A DNA stretch of 64,000 nucleotides from Minisyncoccota bacterium (GCA_041662545.1 JBAZSH010000001.1:46813-110812); one strand, 5' to 3'; shown: positions 5,167 through 29,503, counted from the stretch's first letter. Numbers and translations are program-made. Notes: generated by a model from the sequence alone, not told the origin.

Positions 5167-5847
5167 GTGATTTATTTTGATAATGTTTCAAAAATTTACT
5201 CGGAGGACTCATCGGCTTTGCGCGACATTACCTTGTCTATTGAGCCGAAAGAATTTATTTCCATCGTCGGTCATTCTGGCGCCGGCAAGACAACTTTGCT
5301 AAAAATGATTTTGGCTGAGGAAAGGCCGTCCTCGGGTAAAGTGTTTTTTGATAAAATTGATGTCCACCAGCTTTCCCGCCCGGAAATTACTAAATATCGC
5401 CGGCGCATTGGCACGATTTTTCAGGATTTTCGTTTGATTCCCGATAAGACCGCCTACGAAAATATCGCCTTTGCTATGGAAGCGGCGGGGCGGTTGGACG
5501 ATGAAATTGAATCAGATGTGCCCCATGTTTTGGATCTGGTGGATTTAGGCGATAAGCTTTGGAATTTTCCCCACGAACTTTCCGGCGGTGAAAAACAGCG
5601 AGTAGCCATTGCGCGGGCGATTGTTAATCAACCGGAAATTTTGATGGCCGACGAGCCGACTGGCAATTTGGATCCCCTTAACACTTTTGAAATTGTTCAG
5701 ATTTTGAAAAAAATTAATGATTTGGGTACGACGGTAATTTTGACCACTCATAATAAAGGGGTGATTGATTCGCTCGGCAAGCGCGTAATTACCCTAGACG
5801 CCGGCCGCATCATCCGCGATGACCAAAAGGGACACTATTTATTATAG
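5167..5847 (+). CDS. ftsE: Cell-division ABC transporter ATP-binding protein FtsE
   Basis: GTG start. Walker A GHSGAGKTTLLK, ABC signature LSGGEKQRVAIARA and Walker B ILMADEPTGNLD are present, with end-to-end similarity to E. coli FtsE. No ftsX follows. Confidence 0.85.
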   Translation: MIYFDNVSKIYSEDSSALRDITLSIEPKEFISIVGHSGAGKTTLLKMILAEERPSSGKVFFDKIDVHQLSRPEITKYRRRIGTIFQDFRLIPDKTAYENIAFAMEAAGRLDDEIESDVPHVLDLVDLGDKLWNFPHELSGGEKQRVAIARAIVNQPEILMADEPTGNLDPLNTFEIVQILKKINDLGTTVILTTHNKGVIDSLGKRVITLDAGRIIRDDQKGHYLL

Positions 5848-5849
5848 AA

Positions 5850-8627
5850 ATGAAAAAAATGAAAATTAAAATTCTGGCGGTAGTAATTTTTATTTTTCCT
5901 TTTTTCGCAAACGCCGCCACTTTCGTTTCTGGTGATATTTCTACTAACACCACTTGGACCAAAGCCGAAAGCCCCTACATTATTTCTGACCATTCTTTTA
6001 TAAATGTTTCTGTTGGCACCACTTTGACAATAGAACCTGGCGTAGTCGTGAAATTTGGCAATCGTTCCCGTTTAAATATTTATGGTTCATTAAAAGCTGT
6101 TGGCATAGCTAGTGACAAAATTTATTTTACCTCCTTAATAAACGATGCCATTGGCGGCGATGATAATGGTGATGGTAATTTAACCGAACCATCGCCTTAT
6201 GATGATTGGAATATTTTTTTAAGAAGCGGTTCGTATGATATTGAATTTGAGAATGTAGGATTTAGTTACAGTTACGATACCGTATGGGCATCAGAATCAG
6301 AAGTTTCTTTTGTTAATGTCTCGTTTACTGATTGTTTTGATGCTATTGGTGCTTACAAATCCAAGATAGTTATTAATACTGTCGAAGTCAGGGATATTGA
6401 TGGTAGTGTGGTTTGGGGAGACAATGGTAAATTTGAAATTGAGAGTTTAAATGTAGATGGGGTATATGGATTTTATCCACCTTTGGATTTTTTTCGCGGC
6501 GCTGAGATAACTATAGATAATTCTAAAATTACGAATGTTGGGCTAGCTCGGGCATTAAGAATAGATGGTTCACACGCTACTGTGACTAATTCGGTTTTTT
6601 CTGGTGGGTTATATAGCGGCATTGAAATTCATGATGATTTTTTTAAAAAAATTCCTTCAACTTTGTCAATCACTAATTCCATAATTGAAAATTTTGTAGA
6701 CAACGGATTATATATCTATTCAAGTAAGGTTGATATTAGTAAAACTAAAATTTCCAGCAATCGGCATGGGATAAGAATAAATGATTGGTCCGGTCATTCC
6801 AGGTCCGAAGTCGCTGTTTCTCAAAGTTCAATTGTTGACAACAGTGATTATGGAATTTACACCAATGGATTGAATTCTGTTGATGTTCGCAATAATTGGT
6901 GGGGTGACTCAAGTGGCCCTTTTCACCAAACACTCAATTCGTCCGGTTTAGGCAATGCTGTTTTTGGCAATGTTTTGTTTGACCCGTGGCTGGCGAGCGA
7001 TCCGACAGCAGAAAAAAGAATTGACCCGGTGCTCATTATCCCAGGCATTCTCGGCTCAGCGGAGAAAGACGGCGTCTGGTTGATTGATCCGATTTTTCAT
7101 ACCTATGACGACTTAATCGCCACTCTGGTGGCAAACGGCTATGTTGAAGGTCAAGATCTTTTTACATTTCCCTATGATTGGCGTTTTTCTAATATACTGA
7201 CGGCGGTGGCGTTGAAAAATAAGATTGCGGAAGTGAAAAATATTTGCCAGTGCGACAAGGTGGATTTGGTAGCGCATTCAATGGGTGGTCTCGCGGCGCG
7301 GCAATATATTCAATCTCCCCAGTACGCCGATGATGTGGACCAATTAATTTTTCTCGGCACACCACACCTCGGAGCACCAAAGGCGTATTATTCTTGGGAA
7401 GGAGCAACTGTTCCGCCCAACGATCCAGTTTATTCGGTCATCAAATTTATGTTATGGAGCGAAGCGTTTAAGCTTGATCAAAGTTTATTTGATTATATTC
7501 ATCAATCAGTTTTTTCAATTAGAGAGTTATTGCCAATTTATGATTATCTGACTCTCAAGGATTCTGGTATTGTGGAAAAGTATCCTAACGGTTATCCAGC
7601 AAACTCTTTTCTTGAAAATCTTTCCGCGGGCACAGATGAACTCTTGAATTCCGGTGTTGAGATTATCAACATTGTTGGCAATACAGGAAATTCCACTATT
7701 ATTTCAATTGAAGTAGCATCATCAACAGAACCAAATTTGTGGGAGCATGGCAAACCTGAAATTGTGAGTTATGGGGGAGGAGACGAAACTGTTCCAATAA
7801 CAAGTGCAATTTTAACTTTTTCAGATTCTTATGTTTTTGATAGTAGACATAATAAACTACCGACAATTGCTGAAGGGATAGTTTATAAAGAACTTACTAC
7901 TAAAGATGCTACTACTTTGGTGGATAATTGGGATTTAATCAATTTAAAATTATTGCTAATAAAAATCCTTTCTCCCGCCGACATTCAAGTAATTGCTCCC
8001 GATGGTAGTATTGTTGGCAAGGATTTTGCTACCGGACAGGAAATCAATCAAATTCCCGGTGCCTTTTATTCTGGTTTCCAGACCGACAATGAATATGTGA
8101 CCATTCCTAATCCACAACCTGGCGATTATATTGTTAAAACTATTGGCACTGGCTCCGGCAGTTATATTGTGGCAACCAGTTTAATCTCTAATACTGGCAG
8201 TGTTGAGAAAGAAACCATTGGCACAACAAAACCGGATTTTGTCGCTCAAGTGGAAGTCAGTGTGTCTGGTGATGACTCGCTGGAAATTTTACCTCCTGAT
8301 GTTCAGGCGATTACGCCAGATTTCGTCATTGCCGATATTCAACTTGCCTATGACAATGGCTGGCTCAAAGACAAGAAAATCCGAGACAAACTCATCAAAG
8401 AAATCAAAGCAATGATTAAAGTTGAGAAGAAAATTGAAAAAATTGAGACCAAAGTCAAAGAGAAAAACATTGAAAAGAAAATTGAAAAACTAGAGGTCAA
8501 AGTGGATAAGGTGCTTGCCAAGGCATTAAAAACAGAATTAAAGTTGTATAATGAAGGGAAGATTTTGACCGATGAAGGATTTAATTTAATTAAAAACGAT
8601 ATTGAATTATTAATGTTAATTTATTGA
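5850..8627 (+). CDS. Secreted multidomain protein: parallel beta-helix repeats + LCAT/PGAP1-like alpha/beta-hydrolase (lipase) + K/E-rich coiled-coil tail
   Basis: 925 aa with a signal peptide (MKKMKIKILAVVIFIFPFFANA). The N-terminal half has beta-helix repeat motifs (NNWWGDSSGPF). The central region has PVLIIPGILGS...YDWR and the nucleophile elbow AHSMGG seen in lecithin:cholesterol-acyltransferase-like lipases. The C-terminus has KIEKIETKVKEKNIEKKIEKLEVKVDK repeats. The gene starts 3 nt after the ftsE stop. Confidence 0.6.
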   Translation: MKKMKIKILAVVIFIFPFFANAATFVSGDISTNTTWTKAESPYIISDHSFINVSVGTTLTIEPGVVVKFGNRSRLNIYGSLKAVGIASDKIYFTSLINDAIGGDDNGDGNLTEPSPYDDWNIFLRSGSYDIEFENVGFSYSYDTVWASESEVSFVNVSFTDCFDAIGAYKSKIVINTVEVRDIDGSVVWGDNGKFEIESLNVDGVYGFYPPLDFFRGAEITIDNSKITNVGLARALRIDGSHATVTNSVFSGGLYSGIEIHDDFFKKIPSTLSITNSIIENFVDNGLYIYSSKVDISKTKISSNRHGIRINDWSGHSRSEVAVSQSSIVDNSDYGIYTNGLNSVDVRNNWWGDSSGPFHQTLNSSGLGNAVFGNVLFDPWLASDPTAEKRIDPVLIIPGILGSAEKDGVWLIDPIFHTYDDLIATLVANGYVEGQDLFTFPYDWRFSNILTAVALKNKIAEVKNICQCDKVDLVAHSMGGLAARQYIQSPQYADDVDQLIFLGTPHLGAPKAYYSWEGATVPPNDPVYSVIKFMLWSEAFKLDQSLFDYIHQSVFSIRELLPIYDYLTLKDSGIVEKYPNGYPANSFLENLSAGTDELLNSGVEIINIVGNTGNSTIISIEVASSTEPNLWEHGKPEIVSYGGGDETVPITSAILTFSDSYVFDSRHNKLPTIAEGIVYKELTTKDATTLVDNWDLINLKLLLIKILSPADIQVIAPDGSIVGKDFATGQEINQIPGAFYSGFQTDNEYVTIPNPQPGDYIVKTIGTGSGSYIVATSLISNTGSVEKETIGTTKPDFVAQVEVSVSGDDSLEILPPDVQAITPDFVIADIQLAYDNGWLKDKKIRDKLIKEIKAMIKVEKKIEKIETKVKEKNIEKKIEKLEVKVDKVLAKALKTELKLYNEGKILTDEGFNLIKNDIELLMLIY

Positions 8628-8628
8628 G

Positions 8629-8976
8629 ATGAAAATATTGAAAAATGTTTTTTTGTTGGTGGTTGTTGTCGGGTTGTCTTATTTATTATCTTATCCCATT
8701 GGTTCTCTATATGGCAGTTTATTTACAGGAACAGGATCTTTTGTAGATATGACTAGTCTTTTGGGTATTCCTCTAGCTTACATCTTTCTTTTGACTTCAG
8801 TTTTCACCGTTTGGGGTGGTACGAAAAAATATTGGTGGATCGGTATTGGTTTAATTCCAGTGGCAATCGTTGAACTTTATCTTGACCCAAATCGTATTTA
8901 TTTTCCAATTCTTCTCGGCTTCCTCGGCTGGCTTGTTGGTTTTGGGATTCGGAAACTTTTCGTTGGGAAAAAATAA
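8629..8976 (+). CDS. Small integral membrane protein (about 4 TM), hypothetical
   Basis: 115 aa, hydrophobic throughout. It starts 2 nt after the stop of the upstream gene. Its 3' end (8893-8976) is duplicated at 15279-15365. Confidence 0.5.
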   Translation: MKILKNVFLLVVVVGLSYLLSYPIGSLYGSLFTGTGSFVDMTSLLGIPLAYIFLLTSVFTVWGGTKKYWWIGIGLIPVAIVELYLDPNRIYFPILLGFLGWLVGFGIRKLFVGKK

Positions 8977-8989
8977 TTAATATAAAACT

Positions 8990-9208
8990 ATGTCAAAAGA
9001 TAAAAAACAGGCCCTGGAATTTGAGGCGAAGATAGAGTCGCTTTTTAAAGAACACAAAAGTATCATTGAGCAAAATCACCCATTGACTAAGACGGAAGTG
9101 GACCGATTGTTTGAAATAAGCGCTGAAATTGACAGAGGATTTGAATATCAATCAATGCTTTTGCCTATGATTGAAGAAGAAAAAACCCAAAGCCGTTGGG
9201 ATCATTAA
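8990..9208 (+). CDS. Hypothetical small protein
   Basis: 72-aa ORF with no recognizable motif. It is the first gene inside the island. Confidence 0.3.
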   Translation: MSKDKKQALEFEAKIESLFKEHKSIIEQNHPLTKTEVDRLFEISAEIDRGFEYQSMLLPMIEEEKTQSRWDH

Positions 9209-9359
9209 TTGGGGCGAGGCCTCGATTTCTCATCGGGACTTTCAAAATCTTGCCAAAAAGTGGTAAAATTTTAGCAAGTTGAAAATAAAAGATTTGCCAA
9301 AAGTTGATTAGCCGAGAGAAAAATTTGCTTTAATTTATGATGTCCGTTATAATGTTCGT

Positions 9360-9710
9360 ATGAATATAAAAATGAAAAATATAATATCTATTACTGAAGC
9401 CAGAAGCAACATTTTTGACATTGCCAAAAAAATCCAGAGGCAAGGCAACCATTACATTTTTACCGAGAACGGCAAGCCAAAAATCGCCGTAATGTCCGCC
9501 GATGAATACGAAAATCTTATGGAAGATTTGTTTTTAGCATCTGACCCTAAATTCGCCGCCGAAATAAAAAAGTCAGAAGAAGAATTTGCCCGAGGAGAGT
9601 ATTCTACTTGGGAGGAAGTAAAGGCAAATTTAGACCAGAGAAGAAATTTTGTTGTTGCCGATAAGTCCAAAAAAGGTTATTCCGCAAAGAAGAATAAAAA
9701 AAACAAATAA
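9360..9710 (+). CDS. Type II antitoxin, Phd/YefM family
   Basis: The N-terminus ISITEARSNIFDIAKK...IAVMSADEYENLME matches the Phd/YefM fold. A K-rich C-terminal tail is present. The stop lies 1 nt before the toxin start. Confidence 0.7.
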   Translation: MNIKMKNIISITEARSNIFDIAKKIQRQGNHYIFTENGKPKIAVMSADEYENLMEDLFLASDPKFAAEIKKSEEEFARGEYSTWEEVKANLDQRRNFVVADKSKKGYSAKKNKKNK

Positions 9711-9711
9711 T

Positions 9712-9978
9712 ATGTCCCAAAGATATTTTATTTTTTTGCGGAGAAGCGCGGAAAAAATTTTGTATAAAATGCCGAGTCAAATTAGCCAAAGAATTGAAAA
9801 AGTTATTGACGAGCTGGAGACAAATCCTTATCTTGGTTCAAAAATGCACGGGGAATTGTCGCATTTAAGAAAAATTAGAGTTTCAGATTACAGAATAATT
9901 TACCAAATTTTTGAATCAAAGATAGTTATTGAAATTCTAGAAATCCAAAGTCGTGGCAATGTGTTATATGATAGGTAG
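9712..9978 (+). CDS. Type II toxin, RelE/ParE family
   Basis: 88 aa from the ATG at 9712 (MSQRYFIF...). The C-terminal block RIIYQIF...IVIEILEIQSRGNV is typical of RelE/ParE toxins. It lies immediately downstream of the Phd/YefM gene. Confidence 0.7.
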   Translation: MSQRYFIFLRRSAEKILYKMPSQISQRIEKVIDELETNPYLGSKMHGELSHLRKIRVSDYRIIYQIFESKIVIEILEIQSRGNVLYDR

Positions 9979-10245
9979 AAAATAAAATGTCAAAAGAAAT
10001 GGAAAAATAATTTATTAAAATATGCCTATATTAAATTGGATTGCAAAAGAAAAAATTGAAAATCATGTAAGGATGTGCCTTTTCGGTTGCTTAAAAAAAA
10101 TAAAAAGTTGTCGCTTGGAGAAAAAAGCGAAAATCCCGCTTTTGGCGGGACCGCGTGATTAGTAGGATTTCTCCTACATCAAAAGTATAGCATGGCAATC
10201 AGTTATTAAGCAATATTTGTGGATAAGTGAAAAAGTGAGAAAACG

Positions 10246-10286
10246 AAGGCCTCGCCTTTGTTGCAAAGGCGAGGCCTTTATTTCTC
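10246..10286 (+). terminator. Intrinsic terminator-like hairpin (14-bp perfect stem AAGGCCTCGCCTTT/AAAGGCGAGGCCTT, 5-nt loop, followed by TATTTCTC)
   Basis: Perfect inverted repeat read directly from the sequence, with a T-rich 3' flank. It lies in a 370-nt noncoding stretch between relE and the defence operon. Confidence 0.5.
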
Positions 10287-10350
10287 TGGTTTTTTCTCAA
10301 AAAAGTGGTAATGTTTAAACATCCCCCAGTGTGTTTGGGGGAATAAAAAT

Positions 10351-11277
10351 ATGGCGATTTTTAAGATAAAAAATAATAAGTTAGAAAAGTTTAAAGAAAG
10401 AGAAGCTTTTTTGGAAAAAGATATCCAAAAGCTTACTGAATTAAACTTGAGTGAGATTTTCAAGTTGGAGTATATGTCTTCGCAATTTTCTCTAAAAAAT
10501 TTGAGAATTGATACTTTGTGTTTTGACCCTGAAAATAAAGCCTTTGTTATTATTGAATACAAAAAAGATAGAAGTTTCAGTGTCATCGATCAAGGCTTTG
10601 CGTACCTATCTTTACTGTTAAACAATAAGGCGGATTTTTTGGTTGAGTATAACGAAAAAAATAAATCAAAAACATTGTCGCGCGAAAGTGTAAATTGGTC
10701 TCAGTCCAAGGTAATTTTTATTTCTCCATTTTTTTCATCTCACCAGAAAGAGGCCATCAATTTCAAAAATCTACCAATTGAATTATGGGAGATAAAATAT
10801 TATGGTAGTGATTTAGTTGAATATAAGAATATTGAACCGCTAGAATCATCAGAAAAAATAGAAACCCTTACTGGTAGCAAGTTTATTAAAGAGGTGATAA
10901 AAGAGGTAAAAAATTATGATTTAGAACATCATCTCAAAAAAGGATCTGACAAAACAAGGAAATTATTCTTTGTGTTAAAAGAAAAAATTCTTGAGTTAGG
11001 AGAAATCAACGAAAAATATTTACAATTTTATGTGGGCTATAAAATGGGCGACAGCTACATTAGTTTTTGTCAGATACATTTTTATAAAGAAAAATTGGAG
11101 ATATCAATTCTTATACCGGATAAAAAATTATCTGATTCTAAAAAGTGGGCTCGAAAAGTACCCAAATCTTATGGCTGGGCGAAAAATAGCAAATTTTTTA
11201 ATATCAAAACTGAAAAGGATATTTCGTACACAATGAATTTGATAGAGCAGTCTTACGAGTTTAATAAAAGTAGATAA
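10351..11277 (+). CDS. PD-(D/E)xK nuclease-fold protein (NucS/DUF91-like N-terminal region), hypothetical
   Basis: 308 aa. The block CFDPENKAFVIIEYKKD fits a D...ExK restriction-endonuclease-like catalytic motif. It is the first gene of a tight co-directional operon. Confidence 0.45.
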   Translation: MAIFKIKNNKLEKFKEREAFLEKDIQKLTELNLSEIFKLEYMSSQFSLKNLRIDTLCFDPENKAFVIIEYKKDRSFSVIDQGFAYLSLLLNNKADFLVEYNEKNKSKTLSRESVNWSQSKVIFISPFFSSHQKEAINFKNLPIELWEIKYYGSDLVEYKNIEPLESSEKIETLTGSKFIKEVIKEVKNYDLEHHLKKGSDKTRKLFFVLKEKILELGEINEKYLQFYVGYKMGDSYISFCQIHFYKEKLEISILIPDKKLSDSKKWARKVPKSYGWAKNSKFFNIKTEKDISYTMNLIEQSYEFNKSR

Positions 11278-11280
11278 TTT

Positions 11281-12498
11281 ATGGTAAGAGAAGCATCAAT
11301 CAAAAATCTTACAAATGCGAAACGGGCAAAGAATGATGAGTTTTATACTCAGTACATCGATATTCAAAAAGAAATTGAAAAGTATTTAGATTACAACCCT
11401 AATACATTTCGAGCCAAAATAGTGTACTGCAACTGCGATGACCCGTTTGAGAGCAATTTCTTTCGTTATTTTGTGCTAAATTTCAACAACCTTGGATTGA
11501 AGCAGCTAATCACAACGAGCTACAAACCATCGCCTGTCGCCAACACGCAACTGGGATTATTTGGTGATGACAAAACACTTGTAAAAGCAAAAGGTCGGCC
11601 GAAGGTAACGGCGAACAAGTTCATTATCAACGAGGTGCACGACATAGATGGCGATGGCGAGTTTAACTTGAAGGATGTTGCAAAACAGTTAAAGATAAAT
11701 AAACACAACGAGTGGATGCCACTAAGTGGTGATGGTGATTTCCGTAGCGATGAGTGCGTCGAACTACTCAAGCGGTCTGACATCGTAATAACCAATCCTC
11801 CGTTTAGTTTGTTTCGCGAATATGTTAAACAACTTTTTGATTACAAAAAAAGGTTTCTGATAATCGGCAATATGAATGCGATTACCTATAAAGAAGTATT
11901 CCCTTTAATTAAGGATAATAAAATATGGCTTGGGGCTGGTAAAAATGACGGACGAAATGTATGGTTTCAAATTCCTGATCATTATGAAAAATTTCATAAG
12001 GAGGAAAATGGTAAGAAATATGCTTTTGTCGCAGGAACAATTTGGTTTACGAACCTTGACCATGGGCGCCGTCATCAACCGTTGCCGTTGATGACCACGA
12101 CAGAGGTAATTAAATTTGGTGCAAAAAAGTCATTCGAAAAGTACGATAACTACAACGCAATAGAGGTTCCACTGGTTAAATACATCCCAAATGATTACGA
12201 TGGCGTGATGGGTGTACCAATTAGTTTTCTTAGCAAATATAACCCCGATCAGTTTGAGATCTTAGGAGCTACTCAAAGAGGTTGCCATGATGAGGTTCCC
12301 GACACAAAAAAGTATGATGATTACTGGGAAGTAAGACAGAATGGTGAAAAAACAGGATCGTCTGGTGGAAAAACAAATGAAAATGCCAATTTGGTTGAGA
12401 ATGACGGGAAAAAGAATTACTTTATAAATAATGAAAGCCGAATAATTCAATCTGCTTACCAAAGAATTTTTATAAGACACAAGAAAGCTAAAAAATAA
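11281..12498 (+). CDS. DNA N6-adenine methyltransferase, EcoRI-methylase-like family (NPPF motif)
   Basis: 405 aa. N-terminal NDEFYTQY...VYCNCDDPFESNFF and catalytic IVITNPPFSLF (motif IV, (D/N)PP(F/Y)) are typical of gamma-class adenine methyltransferases of the M.EcoRI family. Confidence 0.7.
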   Translation: MVREASIKNLTNAKRAKNDEFYTQYIDIQKEIEKYLDYNPNTFRAKIVYCNCDDPFESNFFRYFVLNFNNLGLKQLITTSYKPSPVANTQLGLFGDDKTLVKAKGRPKVTANKFIINEVHDIDGDGEFNLKDVAKQLKINKHNEWMPLSGDGDFRSDECVELLKRSDIVITNPPFSLFREYVKQLFDYKKRFLIIGNMNAITYKEVFPLIKDNKIWLGAGKNDGRNVWFQIPDHYEKFHKEENGKKYAFVAGTIWFTNLDHGRRHQPLPLMTTTEVIKFGAKKSFEKYDNYNAIEVPLVKYIPNDYDGVMGVPISFLSKYNPDQFEILGATQRGCHDEVPDTKKYDDYWEVRQNGEKTGSSGGKTNENANLVENDGKKNYFINNESRIIQSAYQRIFIRHKKAKK

Positions 12499-12501
12499 AT
12501 T

Positions 12502-13242
12502 ATGGCTAAAGTTATAAAATTATTTGATCCAATTTATATGAAGGCGTTAAAACTTGCTTCAGAAATTCATTCTAAATCAAGAGAACAAATTGATGTAACA
12601 AAAAAGGATAAAAAATTAGTAATTTATTATTTGCAAGGAGGTTGTATCACGCATGCATACTTAGCAATTAATCATTGGTTGTCGGGCGATCTTGGTGCCC
12701 CTTTTATCCACAAGAGGATAATACAAGAAATGGGAAATGTGGCACTCTTTATTTCTGTATTACCGGAAGAACACAGGTATATAAAATCTTTTTTTGAAAA
12801 AAGTATAATAAGTTTTCCAAATATTTTTTCGACAAAATGGGAAAAAGAAAAAAAGGTAATTTTGAATAAAATGGAATGGGATGATCAAACTTTAAAAAAA
12901 TGGCAGGACAATGCGAAGTTATTAAATGATGGTTTTTCGAATGCAATGCATGCGCAAATTGAGACAGCCGGTTGGAACTCAGATAAATATACGGGGGAAT
13001 ATGATTATCGTCTTCAATGGAATGAATTTCAAGGAGGATTTATAAGGAATTTTGATTTTGGGCATTATATTATAATTCCTACTATTAAACCTTTACTCAT
13101 AAATAAAGAAGTGCTTTTAATAGAAAAAGAAGATTTGGATAAGATAAATCAAATTTTGGAAGTAGTTTTTAATACCGGATTAGATATATTTAATAATTTA
13201 CGAGACAGTGTTTTAAGTAAACAACAGGTAAACACTGGCTAA
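12502..13242 (+). CDS. Hypothetical protein (candidate restriction/effector partner of the MTase)
   Basis: 246-aa ORF starting 3 nt after the MTase stop. No recognizable motifs; placement is the only functional clue. Confidence 0.3.
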   Translation: MAKVIKLFDPIYMKALKLASEIHSKSREQIDVTKKDKKLVIYYLQGGCITHAYLAINHWLSGDLGAPFIHKRIIQEMGNVALFISVLPEEHRYIKSFFEKSIISFPNIFSTKWEKEKKVILNKMEWDDQTLKKWQDNAKLLNDGFSNAMHAQIETAGWNSDKYTGEYDYRLQWNEFQGGFIRNFDFGHYIIIPTIKPLLINKEVLLIEKEDLDKINQILEVVFNTGLDIFNNLRDSVLSKQQVNTG

Positions 13243-13259
13243 TATAAACAATAAATAAT

Positions 13260-14102
13260 ATGAAAAACAACACTTCGCTTGCCATTTTTGAAACTCACAA
13301 AATTCGCCGGTATTTTGACGAGAAAACAGAAACTTGGTTTTTTTCGGTTATTGATATTGTGGCGGCTTTGACGGAACAGAATGATTTTCAAGTGGCTAGA
13401 TCGTATTGGAAAAAGCTTGCACAAAGACTCAGGGATGAAGAAAGTCAAGTGGTGACAAAATGTCACCGGTTGAAAATGATGGCTCAAGACGGCAAGATGC
13501 GAGAAACCGATGCCGCCGATGTGGAAATTATTTTGCGCCTGATTCAATCAGTGCCAAGCAAAAAAGCCGAACCTATCAAATTGTGGCTGGCGAAAGTCGG
13601 TTATGAACGAATGCAGGAAATGAGCGACCCGGAAATAGCGCTGAATCGTTCTCGCGCATATTGGCAAAAACAAGGAAGAAGCGAGAAATGGATCCAGCAA
13701 CGGATGATGGGGCAAGAGACTAGAAATAAACTCACTGACTATTGGGCGGAAAGCGGTGTAAAAAAAGGCGAAGAATTTGCCATTCTTACAAATATAATTC
13801 ACCAAGAATGGAGCGACTTGTCGGTAAAGGCGCACAAAAATCTTAAGGGACTGAAAACGCAAAATCTTCGTGATCATATGAGCGAAGAAGAATTGATTTT
13901 CACCGCGCTGGCGGAGCTTTCTACCAGAAGAATTGCTGAAACTGACAAAACACAAGGTTTGGAAGATAATAAAATTCCTGCGATTAAGGGCGGTCGGATT
14001 GCCAAGGGCGCAAGAAAGGCGCTTGAAGAAAAAACAGGGAGGTCGGTTATAACTGGGAATAATTATTTGCCAAATAAACAACTGATTAAAAAATTAAAAT
14101 AA
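13260..14102 (+). CDS. Bro-N domain / DNA-damage-inducible protein D (DinD)-like protein
   Basis: N-terminal [24 protein letters not shown] matches the Bro-N pattern. The C-terminal part ([20 protein letters not shown]...[25 protein letters not shown]...[13 protein letters not shown]) resembles E. coli DinD. Confidence 0.6.
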
Positions 14103-14103
14103 T

Positions 14104-15273
14104 ATGAAAACAATTTTAAAAACCAATATCACTGTCAAAGATATTTGCGAAGGATTCATCTATAACGAACTGGAAGGCAGGGGTTTGCTTGGCTTGTCTG
14201 GCAAACTCACCATTCAGCCGGAATATCAGCGAAATTATATTTATGCATCCGATGGCGGTAAGCGAGAAATGGCCGTCATTGAGTCAGTTCTTAAAGAATA
14301 TCCAATAGGGTTGATTTATTTCAATAAAGTTTCTAATGATAAATTTGAAGTATTGGACGGTCAACAGCGCATCACAAGTCTTGGACGATTTATCACCGAC
14401 AAATTTGCCATCAAAGATGAAAATGGGATGCCGCAGATTTTTGGTAATATGGCGAGGGATAAGCAAAAAAAGATTTTGGAAACGAAATTACTGATTTACG
14501 AATGCGAAGGTACTGAAAGTCAGATAAAAGAGTGGTTCAAGACTGTAAATATTGCCGGTGTTCCGCTCAACAATCAGGAATTACTCAACGCAGTATATTC
14601 TGGCCCATTTGTAACTAAGGCTAAAGAGGAATTCAGTAATAGTCAAAACGCTAATATTCAAAAATGGAGTGCGTATGTTTCTGGTAGTGCCAACAGGCAG
14701 GAATTTTTGGAATGTGCTTTTGATTGGGTAAGCAAGGGAAGCATTGGCGACTACATGAGCAAGCATCGCAAAGACAAAAACATTGATGAGCTAAAAAAAT
14801 ATTTCAATACTGTCATCGATTGGGTATCTAGCATATTTACTGATGTAGAAAGCGAAATGCGCGGGCTTAAATGGGGGCTACTTTACGAGGAATATCACAA
14901 AAAGGCATATAGCCCAGCGAAAGTAGCGACCGAGGTGCGCAAGCTCTACGGAGATCCATACATCAAAAACCGCAAAGGCATTTTTGAGTATATTCTCGGT
15001 GGTTCCAGTGATACAAAATTGCTTGAAGTTCGGGTTTTTGATGAAGCGACTAAAAGATCTACTTACGAATCACAGACCGCTAAAGCAAAGAAAAAAGAAG
15101 AATCAAATTGTTCTCTCTGCGCTGTCGGACATGATGCGAACAAGGGTAAAATTTGGAGTTTTGCTGAAATGGAAGCAGACCATGTATCAGCGTGGAGCAA
15201 GGGTGGCGCTACTTCGGCAAAAAATTGCCAGATGCTCTGCAAAACTCATAATCGAGCAAAAGGAAATCAGTAA
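14104..15273 (+). CDS. DUF262 (ParB-like DGQQR NTPase/nuclease domain) fused to C-terminal HNH endonuclease; type IV-restriction-like
   Basis: 389 aa with the DGQQRITSL motif of DUF262/ParB-like proteins. The C-terminal CSLC...[12 protein letters not shown]...[10 protein letters not shown] is a canonical HNH motif. The gene starts 1 nt after the dinD-like stop. Confidence 0.7.
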
Positions 15274-15278
15274 AGAAC

Positions 15279-15365
15279 CGCATTTATTTTCCAATCCTTC
15301 TCGGCCTCCTCGGCTGGCTTATTGGTTTCGGTATCCAAAAACTTCTCGCGCGAAAATATCAATAA
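15279..15365 (+). repeat. Orphan duplicate of the 3' end of the 8629-8976 gene (direct repeat, right island boundary)
   Basis: About 80% nt identity to 8893-8976 with the reading frame preserved (IYFPILLGLLGWLIGFGIQKLLARKYQ* versus IYFPILLGFLGWLVGFGIRKLFVGKK*). It has no upstream ORF body. Confidence 0.7.
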
Positions 15366-15499
15366 AAAGGAGCGGCGACAGATTTATTCCATTCACCAAA
15401 GATGAAAGTGGAGTTCTGTCGCCGAAGGTAACTAGTTGAGATTACCCTCGTCTCATTATATCATGATATAATTGAAATTCAGTAAACTTTAGATTTTTT

Positions 15500-15898
15500 A
15501 TGAACAACACCTATAATTGGTATCAAACTTTAATCAAGCCAGCGTGGTCGCCACCAAGTTGGTTGTTCGGACCGGTTTGGGGTGTGCTTTACGCGATCAT
15601 TGCTGTTAGCTATGGTTATGTCGGCTATCTTTTTTCCCAAGGCAGAATTTCTTTTGCCACACTTTTACCTTTCATTCTAAATCTGGTTTTTAACTTTGCC
15701 TTTACGCCATTACAATTTGGTTTGAAAAATAATTATCTAGCCGCCATTGATATTTTACTCGTTCTCGGCACGCTTGTTTGGGCGTTGATAGTTATCTGGC
15801 CGCAGGCGCGCTGGGTTGCTGTTGCCAACATTCCATATTTGCTTTGGGTTTCCTTCGCGACAGTTTTGCAATTAACTATTACTTATTTAAATAGATAA
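15500..15898 (+). CDS. TspO/MBR family protein (tryptophan-rich sensory protein), short form
   Basis: WYQTLIKPAWSPPSWLFGPVWGVLY is the TspO signature. At 132 aa it appears to lack the first TM helix. An upstream in-frame stop excludes a longer ORF. Confidence 0.65.
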   Translation: MNNTYNWYQTLIKPAWSPPSWLFGPVWGVLYAIIAVSYGYVGYLFSQGRISFATLLPFILNLVFNFAFTPLQFGLKNNYLAAIDILLVLGTLVWALIVIWPQARWVAVANIPYLLWVSFATVLQLTITYLNR

Positions 15899-19573: not shown

Positions 19574-20026
19574 ATGGCTAATTTTTCAAGAGATGGCGGT
19601 GACAACAGAGGAGGCTTTAGATCGGGAGGGAGAGGAGGATTTGATAAAAGAGACTCACGACCTATGGTTCTTCATGATGCGATTTGCGGTAAATGTGGAA
19701 ATAAATGCCAAGTGCCTTTTCGTCCCACAGGAGATAAGCCTGTGTATTGCAGAGATTGTTTTTCCCGTATGGGCGGTCCTAGTGGAGCTAGCGGAGATAG
19801 ATTTCAAAAGAAAGATCGAAGAGACTTTGCGCCAAGTTCGCAGGGTATGCAACCGAGAGTAATTCCGCCAAGCGCCGGAGACGACGAAGTAAAAAGACAA
19901 TTAGAGGGGGTGAATGCGAAGTTGGAGAGACTTATCTCCGCCGTGCAAGCTCTTGTGCCGGTAGAAAAATTAGTCAAGACAATTCCAAAAAAATCTACGA
20001 CCAAGAAAGCGTCAAAAAAGGCATAG
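19574..20026 (+). CDS. RGG-box / CxxC-x17-CxxC zinc-ribbon protein
   Basis: 150 aa. The N-terminus carries GGDNRGGFRSGGRGGFDKRD repeats. CGKC-x17-CRDC spacing was counted directly from the sequence. The C-terminus is basic and K-rich. Confidence 0.5.
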   Translation: MANFSRDGGDNRGGFRSGGRGGFDKRDSRPMVLHDAICGKCGNKCQVPFRPTGDKPVYCRDCFSRMGGPSGASGDRFQKKDRRDFAPSSQGMQPRVIPPSAGDDEVKRQLEGVNAKLERLISAVQALVPVEKLVKTIPKKSTTKKASKKA

Positions 20027-23626: not shown

Positions 23627-24754
23627 ATGGCTTTTTTTTCAAAAATTTTTAACAAACTGACGGGTGACGGTGGTGGCACTAGCGTTGTCGGTATTGACAT
23701 TGGATCCTCGGCAGTAAAAATTGTAGAGCTTAAAACAAAAGGTGGTCGGGCGGTGCTTGGCACCTATGGTGCGTTAGCTCTTGGTCCTTACGCCAACAGT
23801 TCTGTTGGTCAAGTAACTAAATTGCCAAATGAAAAAGTTGCCGAGGCCTTGCGCGATATTTTGCGCGAAGCTAACGCTACTACTAAAGTTTGTAGTTTTG
23901 CCATTCCTCTGTCAGCCAGTTTATTGTCGTTAATTGAGATGCCGGTTTTGGATCAAAAGCAATTACCGCAGATGGTGCCCATTGAAGCCAGAAAATATAT
24001 TCCAGTGCCAATGAGTGATGTAACTTTGGATTGGTGGATAATACCAAAGACCGAGCGAGAGACAACTTCCAGCCCAGATGATCCGATGACTAAGATTCAA
24101 AAAGCCAAAATGGTGGATATTCTTTTGGTGGTGATTCAAAATGCCGCTCTTAATAATTATCGGGAAATTGTTAGGTTGACCGGTCTCGATGTTTCCTTTT
24201 TTGAGATTGAAGCGTTTAGTACCATTAGAGCAGTGATGAATAGGGAAACGATGCCGGTGATGATTTTTGATATGGGTGCCGGCGCCACCAAACTTTATAT
24301 TGTAGAAATGGGTATTGTCAGAACTTCTCACACTATCAATCGTGGTTCGCAAGACATCACTTCGGCCTTGGCGCAATCGCTCGGTATTAATGTGGTTGAA
24401 GCGGAAAAATTAAAAAGGGACAAGGGATTAATTGCCGAGGGTATTGCCTCCGGTACTGTTGAAGCCACCTCAGTAATTTTGGGTTATATTTTTGCCGAAG
24501 TTAATCGGGTGCTGATTGGTTACCAAAAGAAAAGCGGCAAAGTGGTGCGGCGGGTGATTTTGACTGGCGGTGGATCAGCATTAAAGGGGATTTTACAATA
24601 TGCCAAAGAGCATCTGGAATCAGAGGTGGAGTTGGCTGACCCATTTGCCAAGGTAGATGCGCCGGCTTTCCTCCAGGGGGTGCTTAAAGACGCCGGTCCG
24701 CAATTTACGGTTGCCTTGGGTGTTGCCCTGCGCCAGCTTCAAGAGTTGGGGTAG
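23627..24754 (+). CDS. pilM: Type IV pilus assembly protein PilM
   Basis: VVGIDIGSSAVKIVELK indicates an actin-like ATPase fold. The protein is 375 aa and opens the pil operon. Confidence 0.8.
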   Translation: MAFFSKIFNKLTGDGGGTSVVGIDIGSSAVKIVELKTKGGRAVLGTYGALALGPYANSSVGQVTKLPNEKVAEALRDILREANATTKVCSFAIPLSASLLSLIEMPVLDQKQLPQMVPIEARKYIPVPMSDVTLDWWIIPKTERETTSSPDDPMTKIQKAKMVDILLVVIQNAALNNYREIVRLTGLDVSFFEIEAFSTIRAVMNRETMPVMIFDMGAGATKLYIVEMGIVRTSHTINRGSQDITSALAQSLGINVVEAEKLKRDKGLIAEGIASGTVEATSVILGYIFAEVNRVLIGYQKKSGKVVRRVILTGGGSALKGILQYAKEHLESEVELADPFAKVDAPAFLQGVLKDAGPQFTVALGVALRQLQELG

Positions 24755-24812
24755 GTGGTTGTTGATAAGATTAACGCTTGCGGACAGAAAAAGGTGTATA
24801 ATGTAAAGGAGT

Positions 24813-25406
24813 ATGGATGGTAATTTTCAAAAATCTTTTATACCCAGAGAATCTTTGGGTGGTGAAGTGAGTTTTGGTTCTAGACCTAGTCTGGGAAGTT
24901 TTACGCTTATCGCCATTGTGATTTTTTTGATTTCCGCCGGTGCTTTTGGGGTAACTTATTTGTATAAACAATCTATCAAGAAAAACATTGCCCAATTGGA
25001 TATTGAGTTAGCTCGGATGCAAGAAATTTTTCAGCCGGCCACTGTTGCTGAATTTGAGAAATTAAGTAGCCGTTTGGCGGCAGCCAATAAGTTAGTTGAT
25101 AATCATATCGCTCTCTCAAAAATTTTTGATGTTTTGGAGGAAGCAACTCTTAAGTCAGTTTATTTCAGTAGTTTTTCTTTGACTAGTAGCGGAGGGGAAT
25201 TTTCGCTGGGCTTGGGTGGTGTCGCTAAAAATTTTAGCTCGGTAGCTTTGCAATCAGACGCTTTCCGTATAAACCCAGCCTTCACGATTTCTACTTTTTC
25301 CAATCTTAATCTGGATGAAAAGGGCAATGTGGTGTTTGGCGTTGCCGCCTTGGTTGATCCAAAAATTTTATCTTATAAGCACAATATTGCCCAAACTGAT
25401 CAATGA
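24813..25406 (+). CDS. PilN-like pilus assembly protein
   Basis: Single N-terminal TM followed by a coiled coil. It lies directly after pilM. Confidence 0.5.
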   Translation: MDGNFQKSFIPRESLGGEVSFGSRPSLGSFTLIAIVIFLISAGAFGVTYLYKQSIKKNIAQLDIELARMQEIFQPATVAEFEKLSSRLAAANKLVDNHIALSKIFDVLEEATLKSVYFSSFSLTSSGGEFSLGLGGVAKNFSSVALQSDAFRINPAFTISTFSNLNLDEKGNVVFGVAALVDPKILSYKHNIAQTDQ

Positions 25407-25966
25407 AAAATATCACCCCCTTTATTTTAATAGTAGCAGCCATCTGGATTTTTTGGGGTTATACCAAACCTATTTATGAAGAGACCGGCGCGCTTCGGGG
25501 AGTCAGAACTGGTTATGAAAATAAATTGGCACAAGCCAATGAGTTTCGACAACAGTATGAAAATCTTGCCACTGCCTACCAGAGTTTCTCTGAAACCGAT
25601 TTAGCCAATCTTTCACATTTGGTGCCCGATGAGATTGATCCCATCCGTCTTGTCATTGAGGTCAATGAGATCGCCGCCAAACAGGGTTTGCTAATTGAAG
25701 ATATCGCTGTTAGTGAATCTGGAAATACAGCAAAGGAAGCTAATTTGCCAGCCGTTGAAACAAGTTTTAATAGTGTTTTTAGTAATGTTGATTTAAGTTT
25801 TTCAGTGACTGGTAGTTACGGACAATTTGTCGCCTTTCTTCATGATTTGGAGAGCAGTCTACGGATTTTAGATGTGACTGATATAAAATTTTCTTTGGCG
25901 AAAGATTCCGTCAACGGTGGTAGTTATAATTTTAGCGTAGGTTTGAAGACCTATTGGTTACAATAA
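25403..25966 (+). CDS. PilO-like pilus assembly protein
   Basis: N-terminal TM followed by a coiled coil and a beta-rich region. It overlaps the upstream gene by 4 nt. Confidence 0.5.
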   Translation: MKNITPFILIVAAIWIFWGYTKPIYEETGALRGVRTGYENKLAQANEFRQQYENLATAYQSFSETDLANLSHLVPDEIDPIRLVIEVNEIAAKQGLLIEDIAVSESGNTAKEANLPAVETSFNSVFSNVDLSFSVTGSYGQFVAFLHDLESSLRILDVTDIKFSLAKDSVNGGSYNFSVGLKTYWLQ

Positions 25967-25969
25967 TTT

Positions 25970-26272
25970 ATGAATCCAAATAAATCAAAAAAGGGGAAAA
26001 TGGCAATCGTCATTGTGGCAATAATTGTCGCCGCCTTTATTGGTTATTCGTTGTTTTTTTCCAGCAAGAATAGTGATTTGTCCCCACTTTTGCCACAAGA
26101 GACAGACCAAAGTCAGACGGGGAACGATTTGCTTATGATATTTGCCAAATTATCGGCACTTAACCTGGACCCGACTGTTTTACAAAATCCAGTTTTTATT
26201 TCGTTGAAGAATTTCTCGCGAGAAATTCCCAGTGAGCCTTCGGGCCGGTCTAATCCGTTTGCCCCGATTTAG
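25970..26272 (+). CDS. Small TM protein of the pilus operon (PilP-like, C-terminal NPF motif)
   Basis: 100 aa with one TM. It ends in ...GRSNPFAPI. Confidence 0.35.
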   Translation: MNPNKSKKGKMAIVIVAIIVAAFIGYSLFFSSKNSDLSPLLPQETDQSQTGNDLLMIFAKLSALNLDPTVLQNPVFISLKNFSREIPSEPSGRSNPFAPI

Positions 26273-26292
26273 TTTTATTTCATTTTTTCCAA

Positions 26293-28014
26293 ATGGGCAT
26301 TCTAGAAATTTTAGTAAAAAAAAATATTATTACCGACGAAGATGTGCCGGTAATCAAGAAGGAACTAAAAAAGCCGGGTGTTAAGCTTGACGAAATTTTA
26401 CAGGATCGCGGCGTAACGGCCACTGACCTTTTGACAATCAAGGGCGAACTTTATGGCGTGCCGATAAAGGTCTTAGACAATCAAGGTATTCCTTTTGAAG
26501 TTTTGCGTTATGTGCCAGAAGAATCAGCTATCCACTATAAACTGGCTCCGGTCGGGATTGCGGAAGGTGTTTTGGAAGTTGGTATGGTGGAGCCGGATAA
26601 TATTGAAGCTCGTGATGCTTTGAATTTTATTTCTTCGAAAGTTGATATGCCCTACAAAGTTTATCTGATTTCTCAAGCTGATTTTGAAAAAATTGCTCAA
26701 ATGTATAGAGGTTTGTCTGGCGAGGTGTCCCAAGCTTTAACGGAACTAGAGACAGAATTGTCTGGCGATCAGGCTGAATTAGCAGAGACCAGAATAGCGT
26801 CAAGTAATGAAGGTGGCACTGGCACTAGGATTATTGAAGATGCGCCGGTGACAAAAATTGTTGCTACCATTCTTCATTACGCGGTAGAAGGTAATGCTTC
26901 TGATATTCACATTGAACATCTAGGTGACAAAGTGCGAGTGCGTTTTCGAGTGGACGGTGTTTTAAATACTAGTTTGCTTTTACCACCAAAAGTTCACGCG
27001 GCGGTAGTGGCGCGAGTGAAAATTCTTTCCAATATGCGCTTGGATGAAAAACGAAAACCGCAAGACGGCCGGTTTAGCGCTCGCATTAGTGGTCGGAAAA
27101 TTGATTTTCGCGTTTCCACTTTTCCCGCTTATTACGGTGAAAAAGTGGTGATGAGGATTTTGGATTCGGAAAGAGGGGTTAAGGCCCTAGAAGAAATTGG
27201 TCTTTCCACTAGAAATCTTCAGTTGATTCGCGATGCCATTAAAAGACCTTATGGTATGGTTTTGATTTCCGGTCCGACTGGTTCTGGTAAGTCCACTACT
27301 CTTTATTCAATGTTGAATGAAGTAGACAAGGAAACGAAAAATGTTTTGAGTTTGGAAGATCCGGTGGAATACAATATGCCTGGTATGAGTCAGTCGCAAG
27401 TTCGGCCGGAAATCGGTTACACTTTTGCCACCGGTTTGCGCACCACCCTTCGTCAAGATCCGGATGTAATAATGGTAGGTGAGATTCGCGATAAAGAAAC
27501 CGCTGGTTTGGCAATTCAAGCGGCGCTGACTGGCCACTTGGTTCTTTCTACTATTCACACCAACAACGCTCTAGGTGTTATTCCACGATTATTGGATATG
27601 GGTGTTGACCCATTTATGATTCCACCAACTTTGATTTTGGCGATTGCCCAACGGCTAGTAAAAACCATTTGTCCCAATACCGGCAAATCCATCCCCGTTG
27701 AAGGCAGTATTAAGTTGATGGTAGAAAAACAATTGGCCGATTTGCCAGCCCAATATCATTTTCAAATTCCTATTGGTAAAGATGTTTTTGGAGCAATGCC
27801 TTCGCCTGAATGTCCTAAAGGCACGCGTGGTCGGACGGCAGTAGTGGAGGTTTTGGAAATGAGTCGTGATTTGGAGGCGGCGATTTTGAAGGGTGCTAGT
27901 GAGGTTGAACTTAAAAAAATTGCTCGAGCTCAAGGTATGCTGACAATGAAAGAGGACGCGCTGTGCAAGGCCTTCCGCCACGAAATTCCCTTTGAAGAAG
28001 TAAATGAGCTATAA
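26293..28014 (+). CDS. pilB: Type IV pilus assembly ATPase PilB (GspE family)
   Basis: N-terminal T2SSE_N region. Walker A GPTGSGKSTTL, Asp box and His box are present. A CxxC zinc-binding pattern is present only in degenerate form (CPNTG...CPKGTRG). Confidence 0.85.
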   Translation: MGILEILVKKNIITDEDVPVIKKELKKPGVKLDEILQDRGVTATDLLTIKGELYGVPIKVLDNQGIPFEVLRYVPEESAIHYKLAPVGIAEGVLEVGMVEPDNIEARDALNFISSKVDMPYKVYLISQADFEKIAQMYRGLSGEVSQALTELETELSGDQAELAETRIASSNEGGTGTRIIEDAPVTKIVATILHYAVEGNASDIHIEHLGDKVRVRFRVDGVLNTSLLLPPKVHAAVVARVKILSNMRLDEKRKPQDGRFSARISGRKIDFRVSTFPAYYGEKVVMRILDSERGVKALEEIGLSTRNLQLIRDAIKRPYGMVLISGPTGSGKSTTLYSMLNEVDKETKNVLSLEDPVEYNMPGMSQSQVRPEIGYTFATGLRTTLRQDPDVIMVGEIRDKETAGLAIQAALTGHLVLSTIHTNNALGVIPRLLDMGVDPFMIPPTLILAIAQRLVKTICPNTGKSIPVEGSIKLMVEKQLADLPAQYHFQIPIGKDVFGAMPSPECPKGTRGRTAVVEVLEMSRDLEAAILKGASEVELKKIARAQGMLTMKEDALCKAFRHEIPFEEVNEL

Positions 28015-28040
28015 ATAAGTTATAATCTAATTCACTAAAT

Positions 28041-28436
28041 ATGGCCGAACAAAAAAAGGAAAAAGTTTTGATAGTAGACGACGACAAGTTTCTTTTAAGC
28101 ATGTATACCGTCAAGTTTAAGAACGCTGGTTTTGAGGTAGATATGGCGAACGGTGGGGCAGAGGCGTTGAGTAAACTTCAAGATGGCAATGCGCCGGACA
28201 TTCTTATTTTAGACTTGATTATGCCCGGTATGGATGGCTATGAATTTCTGGCGAAAGTTCGGGAACAAAAATTGGTGCCAAAGGCGACGGTGGTTGTTTT
28301 AACTAATCAAGGTCAGCCGGAGGATATTGAGAAAGCCAAGAAATACAATGTCCAAGGTTACATTGTCAAAGCCAGCACCATTCCGTCGGAAGTTCTTGAA
28401 GAAGTAATGAAAATACATAAAAGTAAAAATAATTAG
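28041..28436 (+). CDS. Response regulator receiver protein (CheY/PilH-like) embedded in the pil operon
   Basis: 131 aa. VLIVDDD...DILILDLIMPGMDG...K signature. Confidence 0.8.
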   Translation: MAEQKKEKVLIVDDDKFLLSMYTVKFKNAGFEVDMANGGAEALSKLQDGNAPDILILDLIMPGMDGYEFLAKVREQKLVPKATVVVLTNQGQPEDIEKAKKYNVQGYIVKASTIPSEVLEEVMKIHKSKNN

Positions 28437-28437
28437 A

Positions 28438-29499
28438 ATGGATTATACCAAAGAACTTGAACAATTAATCATAACCGTTATTAAAGAAGGCGGTTCCGAT
28501 TTACATATTTCCGAAGGCCGGTATCCGACCATTCGGGTAACGGGCGCCTTGATCCCGCTCTTGAAGCATAAAATATTGTCCAAAGAAGACACTTTGGGCT
28601 TGGTAACAGAACTTTTAACATCAGAAAACAAGAAACAATTTTTGGAGACAAAGGAAATTGATTTTTCCTACAGTTATAAAAATGAAGCACGTTTTCGTGG
28701 TAATGGTTATTTTCAACAGGGATCCGTGGGCATCGCTTTGCGTTTGATACCTAGAAAAATTCGGACATTGGAAGAATTGAACTTGCCGCCGATTCTCTCT
28801 ACTTTTGCTGAAAAACAACAGGGTTTTTTCTTGGTGGTGGGTCCCGTTGGCCACGGCAAGACGACAACTTTGGCGGCGCTTATTGACCTCATTAATACCA
28901 ATCGGGCCGAACATATTATTACCATTGAGGATCCGATTGAATATATCTTTGAAGAAAAGCGTTCTCTGGTTGATCAACGGGAAGTGAAAGTTGATACCAA
29001 AGATTTTCAAACGGCTTTGACCGCGATGTTTCGACAGGATGTGAATATTGCGATGATTGGCGAAATGCGCGGTCTTGAGACAATTTCTGCCGCCGTTACT
29101 GCTGCCGAGACTGGCCATTTTGTTGTTTCCACTCTGCACACCAACAGCGCCGCTCAGACCATTGATAGGATTATTGATTTTTTTCCGTTTAATCAGCAGG
29201 GGCAGATTCGTTTGCAACTCGCCGAGACCTTGACCGGTATTTTTTCTCAACGATTGTTGCCGAGAATTTCCGGTGGTTTGGTGCCGGCTTATGAATTGTT
29301 AATTACTAACAATGCGGTTTCTAACTTGATTCGTGAAAAACGCACCCACGAAATTAATACTGTTATTGAGACCGGCTTAGACCAAGGAATGATTGATATC
29401 AATCGGTCGCTGTTGGATCTTGTTCGCCGTAGTGAAATCGCCGTTGCCGATGCCTATCGTTATACCACTAACTTGAAATCATTAGAGCGAATGATGTAA
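28438..29499 (+). CDS. pilT: Twitching-motility/retraction ATPase PilT
   Basis: Near end-to-end similarity to PilT (GGSDLHIS..., IEDPIEY, AAETGHFVVSTLHT). It has a variant Walker A, GPVGHGKTTT. Confidence 0.8.
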   Translation: MDYTKELEQLIITVIKEGGSDLHISEGRYPTIRVTGALIPLLKHKILSKEDTLGLVTELLTSENKKQFLETKEIDFSYSYKNEARFRGNGYFQQGSVGIALRLIPRKIRTLEELNLPPILSTFAEKQQGFFLVVGPVGHGKTTTLAALIDLINTNRAEHIITIEDPIEYIFEEKRSLVDQREVKVDTKDFQTALTAMFRQDVNIAMIGEMRGLETISAAVTAAETGHFVVSTLHTNSAAQTIDRIIDFFPFNQQGQIRLQLAETLTGIFSQRLLPRISGGLVPAYELLITNNAVSNLIREKRTHEINTVIETGLDQGMIDINRSLLDLVRRSEIAVADAYRYTTNLKSLERMM

Positions 29500-29503
29500 T
29501 TTT

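Follow-up and report, generated by a model that had tools for sequence, protein, structure and literature searches.

We analysed a 64,000-nt stretch of DNA (GCA_041662545.1 JBAZSH010000001.1:46813-110812; this whole stretch is called the window) from Minisyncoccota, part of the metagenome-assembled genome of an uncultured Candidatus Paceibacterota of the Candidate Phyla Radiation (CPR). Within it, an intact gene for a four-transmembrane (4TM) protein is followed by 6.3 kb of toxin-antitoxin and restriction-type defence genes (the island) and then by the leftover last 28 codons of a 4TM gene, so that the 3' end of the intact gene (copy A) and the leftover (copy B) form a direct repeat around the island. 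With a probability of about 50%, the insertion or replacement of defence cassettes, independent of an integrase, truncated a resident 4TM gene and left copy B as its stump. We favour this origin because no recombinase was found, the two tails had diverged before they were brought together, the island is a mosaic by its content, its compositional boundary is misplaced, the tail of this gene family behaves as a recombination junction, and a second stump, in another lineage, has a different breakpoint. The repeat looks more like what recombination leaves behind in a variable hotspot than like a working pair of attachment (att) sites, as which it had been interpreted in an initial annotation. That interpretation stands as far as the accessory segment and the distal, displaced resident end are concerned; its mechanism is weakened by the lack of a recombinase in the 64 kb and of an empty site in the collections searched, by repeats that are 79% identical and by a mosaic insert, and site-specific integration is no longer the simplest reading.

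The intact 4TM gene (8629-8976, + strand) encodes a 115-aa protein with four hydrophobic segments, for which no Pfam, NCBIfam or PHROG family match was found. The recurrence of its last 84 nt (8893-8976 versus 15279-15365), reported initially, was borne out by pairwise alignment with 67/84 ungapped matches, and the repeat extends to 8890-8980 (copy A) and 15276-15366 (copy B), both on the + strand, with 72/91 matches (79%); the similarity stops at both stop codons. Copy A covers the last 28 codons of the intact gene (TM4 and the basic tail) and its stop. Copy B retains the frame over 28 open codons and a stop and has no upstream gene body, just as had been described, nor does it have a start codon, as the stretch from the preceding in-frame stop (15249-15251) up to the repeat contains no ATG, GTG or TTG. 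The two peptides had been assigned the wrong way round: the one ending in GFGIRKLFVGKK belongs to copy A and the one ending in GFGIQKLLARKYQ to copy B. When the 91-mer was slid over the whole window on both strands, the mean was 23.8 matches (standard deviation 4.4) and the next-best placement reached 44/91, which puts the pair about 11 standard deviations out. In addition, the translation of copy B matched the 4TM family profile (19 members; E = 2e-10) at profile positions 89-115, and the same profile detected no further 4TM fragment in the window. Additional copies of the repeat, envisaged in the initial annotation, do not occur in the window either, and a search of the island ends and of the surroundings of 5850-15278 for other repeats, direct or inverted, gave only short chance-level matches. 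The longest exact blocks common to the two copies are 14 nt long (ATTTATTTTCCAAT and TCCTCGGCTGGCTT).

Independent metagenome assemblies of the same strain (99.8-100% identity) recovered the left junction (L001-L003) and the right junction (L005), and a chimeric assembly was thus ruled out. Other assemblies of this strain end at or within the island, at about 9388, 9750, 10124, 11532, 15174 and 15284, the last of these contigs starting inside copy B; strain heterogeneity or low coverage could explain such breaks.

The two copies differ about as much as neighbouring genes differ between lineages. Over 75 nt of the tail, copy A matches copy B at 61 positions (81%) and a sister lineage (L007) at 61, while copy B matches the sister at 65, in keeping with the earlier proposal that B is the displaced end of the resident gene; the background between the window and the sister lineage in neighbouring genes is 78-84% nucleotide identity (16-22% different). 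Where A and B differ, four sister alleles mostly agree with B, for example in GGTATCCAAAAACTTCTCGC, encoding GIQKLLA (tail sequences read by eye), copy A being the more derived with respect to the sister lineages. The frame of copy B is open over its 28 codons, and 5/7 differing codons among the first 19 are synonymous. Judged from these alignments, copies A and B have diverged like orthologues of two lineages, with B the more ancestral-looking, one tail probably came from another lineage or from a paralogue, and copy B seems to have been under coding constraint until fairly recently. As their divergence is at the between-lineage level and B looks more ancestral, it is older than their juxtaposition. 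This divergence pattern led us to reject a duplication that arose recently in situ, and it does not fit an old duplication of the target in which B later decayed.

In a sister population the gene order is conserved (zf_Tbcl_2, a 101-aa open reading frame (ORF), a 117-aa 4TM gene, a hairpin and an NMO gene on the opposite strand), and a comparison of L006 with L027 found the flanks to be 96-100% identical, the 4TM body 40-72% identical, and the identity to return to 90-98% from about codon 104. Across L006/L007 and L026-L038, the 4TM gene is an allelic cassette with at least three allele types, a variable body (about codons 5-104) and a conserved last ~50-70 nt. Tandem paralogues follow suit: in Kerfeldbacteria, locus L017 (2667-3620) carries tandem 4TM genes that are ~30-60% identical over the first ~170 nt and then identical at 123/126 positions, and L019 (1272-2445) holds three 4TM copies, as one single and a fused double. 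This pattern in sister strains and tandem paralogues places the breakpoints in just that part of the gene which the window carries twice, and the conserved tail, set against a hypervariable body, is a natural recombination junction of the 4TM family. The second stump was found at L025 (1-354; Candidatus Kerfeldbacteria JACRFN010000042.1), a contig that opens with a CRISPR-like array of three identical repeats (34-38 nt, period 69-70 nt). Immediately next to the array lies a 4TM gene from which about the first 60 codons are missing, and beyond it, on the opposite strand, come fmt, def and priA; here too, then, a defence locus borders on a 4TM gene truncated at its 5' end. Since this stump is cut at another codon (~60), the breakpoints are not fixed, which argues against a single att core for the family. 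L025 is the only other stump, and no other family locus shows both an intact 4TM gene and a stump.

The island carries the components of a type II-like restriction-modification (R-M) system, namely an EcoRI-type adenine DNA methyltransferase (M; 11281-12498, + strand; Pfam PF13651 1e-123, PADLOC MTase_II 5e-105) and a nuclease with GmrSD_N (DUF262) and HNH domains (R; 14104-15273, + strand; PADLOC REase_II 2e-85), as predicted from the presence of both families. Nucleases that share 65-81% identity with R occur on ten IMG/VR contigs, and in 9/9 of the loci that extend upstream (including L120-L121 and L124-L129) an EcoRI-like methyltransferase, 42-65% identical to M, lies directly before R. 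In 10/10 of these contigs the DNA right after the R stop is unlike that of the window. At L126 (8834-11164), the M and R pair is found between phage tail genes, with tape-measure/GpU on one side and tube and sheath on the other, and L120 carries a terminase. Elsewhere, M and R thus form an adjacent two-gene module that travels as a cassette; in the window, two genes separate them, and the identity of M to its phage-contig homologues lags behind that of R. With M and R separated here, and with 2-5 nt between the R stop (15271-15273) and the beginning of copy B, the right junction resembles an R-M cassette edge set against a truncated gene and does not resemble an att arm.

Further left (10022-10160, + strand) lies the 5' remnant of a methyltransferase gene, frameshifted and truncated, which was recognized by tblastn after correcting one frameshift. 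The corrected peptide (beginning MPILNWIAKEKIENHVKDVPFRLLKK) aligns with the N-termini of annotated site-specific DNA methyltransferases (E down to 1e-4) and carries the N-terminal motif MPxLNWIxK...VPFRLL; it is debris from an earlier defence cassette. What had been taken for a candidate small RNA region is this remnant followed by a 16-bp GC-rich hairpin (10245-10279), strong and terminator-like on both strands, that divides the toxin-antitoxin and remnant part from a five-gene operon; no Rfam match for 9979-10350 was found below E = 0.2. With a gene remnant inside it and M and R split apart, the island is, to judge by its genes, a mosaic rather than one element.

Base composition separates the island only partly from its surroundings. 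Its GC content is 0.356, against 0.42-0.44 in the flanks, and its tetranucleotide distance is the largest in the window (z 2.4-2.8), so it is the most deviant stretch in the comparison that the initial annotation proposed; the boundary is not at 8977, however, and the right third is host-like. The three parts of the island have GC contents of 0.34, 0.33 and 0.405, the last being that of the right third. The GC content of third codon positions (GC3) already falls from 0.482 in ftsE to 0.322 in the gene upstream of the 4TM gene, which encodes LCAT, a 925-aa secreted beta-helix and PGAP1-LCAT-type lipase-like protein (5850-8627, + strand; Pfam). With 0.322 and 0.304, LCAT and the 4TM gene are as atypical as the island genes, the core value being 0.41 +/- 0.05. 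Hence the atypical block begins near 5850, as expected if the 4TM gene came together with the downstream DNA.

The statement that the island itself holds no integrase or recombinase was confirmed by searching all island proteins with Pfam, NCBIfam, PHROGs and PADLOC. Twenty further mid-sized proteins of the window yielded no recombinase in Pfam, with only housekeeping functions represented (ATP synthase, type IV pilus, RecA, NusG and EF-P), and none was found among the 171 window ORFs of at least 65 aa by phmmer and a motif screen, for which the XerD and Hin queries were approximate. An attP-like free copy was looked for in viral contigs, where 30 nt of the terminal coding part of copy A (8939-8968) had no exact match, and as no tRNA gene was found in the window, a tRNA target is not available. 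The window does encode PilM, PilO, PilB, PilT and PilC (23627-30712) as well as recA (41586-42638), and type IV pilus genes plus recA are the machinery required for DNA uptake and homologous recombination.

The relatives do not supply the unoccupied locus. Twenty 4TM homologues were found in a database of 5.8 billion proteins, none of which joins an A-type body to a B-type tail. The pairing of LCAT, as upstream partner, with the 4TM gene is conserved in relatives, and what lies downstream of the pair varies (MurJ, Wzy, fmt-def or an NMO-like gene). Neither adjacency of a 4TM gene and TspO nor a second case of a gene plus a stump was seen in 14 genome and ~25 metagenome 4TM loci and 80 TspO loci, and among the 80 TspO relatives, whose identity is 77% at most, there is none with LCAT or a 4TM gene upstream. 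One of the loci, L057, retains the backbone RF2-FtsE-FtsX...TspO-M23, and the whole FtsE-to-TspO interval is variable. No empty site, which the initial annotation pictured as the membrane-protein gene directly before TspO, was found by exact-protein look-ups of 4TM and TspO, a homologue search, a GTDB scan with the family alignment or a metagenome TspO scan; these yielded only the same strain or relatives at most 80% identical. With the nearest relatives ~80% identical this check is weak, and the missing empty site is therefore absence of evidence and not refutation. The exact DUF262-HNH protein has no database record, and the exact look-up of the PDC-S18 protein of the island matched only a 1.4-kb contig of the same strain.

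An integrase-independent history could have run as follows. The resident 4TM gene would once have been complete, and its first ~87 codons would have been lost as horizontally acquired defence and addiction cassettes inserted and were later replaced. The DNA taken up would have carried a 4TM allele with its own tail together with the downstream cassettes. On the left side, the incoming DNA would have recombined by homology in the LCAT/4TM region, and on the right side an illegitimate join would have formed at codon 88 of the resident copy, as in homology-facilitated illegitimate recombination. Alternatively, two 4TM genes may have stood in tandem, with the cassettes inserting into the second of them. 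Subsequent cassette turnover would have left the methyltransferase remnant and split M from R.

Several points weigh against this history. No donor or pre-insertion genome was found in the collections searched, and the illegitimate junction and its microhomology are what we infer rather than observe. Site-specific integration classically leaves just such a footprint, an intact gene followed by an insert and a displaced 3' end, with a repeat that stops exactly at the stop codons, and the two 14-nt exact blocks could have been a crossover core. The search for a recombinase beyond the island, which the initial annotation had in mind for the rest of the genome, found none in the 64 kb of the genome that it covered. 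The identities to L007 (body 78.8%, B-tail 87%, A-tail 81%), in a comparison resting on 75 nt and too short for significance, slightly favour the A-body and B-tail as one gene, and with it a tail swap over the import of a whole allele. Finally, the low GC3 of LCAT and 4TM could be intrinsic to these genes.

The most serious alternative is that a mobile island carrying a 4TM 3' end integrated site-specifically, providing the new tail A and displacing B, with its integrase lost or acting in trans; we regard this as possible but doubtful. It accounts well for the direct repeat of a gene 3' end bracketing a compositionally deviant accessory segment while the gene stays intact, yet the left compositional boundary lies at ~5850 and not at 8977, and the R stop, 2-5 nt from copy B, leaves no element DNA at the supposed attR arm. 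A resident-looking copy B and a derived copy A are what this model expects; the polymorphism pattern fits a single crossover near the exact block CTTCTCGGC (sequences read by eye), and the L007 identities point the same way. Set against these are repeats that are only 79% identical, the other stump (L025) cut at a different codon, and an island composed of separately mobile cassettes. A documented analogue is e14, a prophage that excises after SOS induction and sits between icd and the C-terminal pseudogene icdC (PMC13626634). For the window, on the other hand, there is no integrase in the island or in the 64 kb, no exact viral-contig match for the 30 nt taken from copy A (8939-8968), and, in the collections searched, no empty site and no second genome with the same footprint.

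Much less can be said for an R-M "insertion with long target duplication" of the kind described by the Kobayashi group, in which an insert without mobility genes would have duplicated a ~90 bp target, and we judge it highly improbable. The insert has the right character, with R and M inside, a length under 20 kb, a direct repeat longer than 30 bp, no mobility genes and low GC. Such cases come mostly from naturally competent species, some of their repeats overlapped gene 3' ends, and the published repeats were 44/46 to 60/65 identical (PMC2853133), that is, more alike than A and B. Duplicated copies would start identical, whereas 19/91 positions differ between A and B. Of the two, it is B, non-coding but with its frame still open, that has diverged less from the sister lineages, and an old duplication in which B decayed would have left the reverse; an insert-free genome with a single-copy target was not found either. 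Lastly, chance similarity or an assembly artefact, of which the assemblies breaking inside or at the edges of the island are the only possible hint, has a negligible probability, being refuted by the 72/91 matches against the next-best 44/91, the profile hit of copy B and the junctions in independent assemblies.

The remaining genes between the copies, all of which lie on the + strand, agree with the initial description of the intervening DNA as accessory, comprising a small ORF, a Phd/RelE pair and a five-gene defence operon. The small ORF (8990-9208) encodes an orphan 72-aa protein that has no relatives in viral contigs and only itself in the 5.8-billion-protein set. It is followed by a Phd/YefM-family antitoxin gene (9360-9710; Pfam PF02604, 45.9 bits against a cut-off of 29.8; TIGR01552) and, 1 nt further on, by a ParE/RelE-family toxin gene (9712-9978; Pfam PF05016, 46.1 bits against a cut-off of 23; TIGR02385), and both scores exceed the curated cut-offs, so the two are predicted to form a type II toxin-antitoxin pair. 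The tightly spaced five-gene operon (10351-15273) starts with a PDC-S18 defence candidate (10351-11277; DUF5655 and a weak HSDR_N_2 in Pfam; PADLOC 5.6e-95). After M come the two genes that separate it from R, namely one for a 246-aa protein of no assigned family (12502-13242), which has the lowest GC3 of the island (0.232), and one for a Bro-N-domain protein, a PDC-S13 defence candidate (13260-14102; phrog_15286).

To the right of copy B, the first gene of the flank encodes TspO/MBR (15500-15898, + strand) and has host-like composition. DUF262-HNH, methyltransferase (fragment) or Bro-N genes adjoin TspO in L039 (694-2609), L081 and L116 (215-1466), which suggests that genes of this kind settle repeatedly in the vicinity of TspO. 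To the left, the LCAT-like gene begins 3 nt after ftsE (5167-5850 region); ftsX, which adjoins ftsE in L016, L039 and L057, is not present in the 64 kb. A separate ORF of 80-101 aa precedes the 4TM gene in sister lineages and corresponds to the coiled-coil tail at the C-terminus of the 925-aa LCAT-like protein (L006 25-787, L026 56-361 and L012 3052-3294; the window counterpart is 8320-8627). In L006 this ORF comes after the zf_Tbcl_2 gene, the window orthologue of which (19574-20026) lies 4 kb downstream of copy B. The LCAT tail and the 4TM gene seem to be a module that was moved or retained on its own.

The gain and loss of defence genes in ultra-small CPR bacteria has little documentation, and the locus offers a concrete, datable footprint of it. 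Its combination of a resident stump, an imported or paralogous tail, a cassette mosaic and no integrase points to homology-driven and illegitimate recombination over classical integrative elements. More speculatively, and with the odds clearly against it, the conserved last ~70-90 nt of the 4TM family might act as a portable homology arm by which RecA swaps gene bodies and captures integrase-less defence cassettes after DNA uptake; if true, this would be a homology-guided, recombinase-free form of island capture and cassette exchange tied to a secreted lipase-like protein. A membrane-protein gene with a hypervariable body and a conserved tail could, in addition, serve as a strain marker and recombination hotspot.

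Among known systems, e14 (and phage 21) at icd resembles the window in that the insert lies between an intact gene, the end of which comes from the insert side, and a displaced C-terminal fragment of that gene with slight differences. The integrase of e14 is encoded by the prophage itself, and the two icd repeats resemble each other far more closely than 79%. The window differs in that no recombinase was found in its 64 kb, its repeats are 79% identical and its insert is a mosaic of defence cassettes. R-M insertions of the Kobayashi type share with it a size under 20 kb, low GC, the presence of R and M, the lack of mobility genes and repeats longer than 30 bp at a gene 3' end, as well as a lineage with pilus genes of the DNA-uptake type; unlike in those cases, the repeats of the window were already diverged when joined, and not one target duplicated. 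Homology-facilitated illegitimate recombination is known from natural transformation in Acinetobacter and Streptococcus pneumoniae, and its one-sided anchor and illegitimate join would leave an imported allele, along with the DNA downstream of it, beside a truncated resident copy, which is the course that we infer for the window. Defence islands and integration hotspots likewise bring together toxin-antitoxin genes, R-M genes and defence candidates, here along with a gene remnant and neighbours that vary between relatives, although one border of the window's island, unlike that of generic defence islands, is marked by the stump of a neighbouring hypervariable membrane-protein gene. The footprint thus belongs to known classes, as a new instance in a CPR genome that overturns no current view; more unusual than the footprint is the 4TM gene itself, with its hypervariable body and conserved tail.

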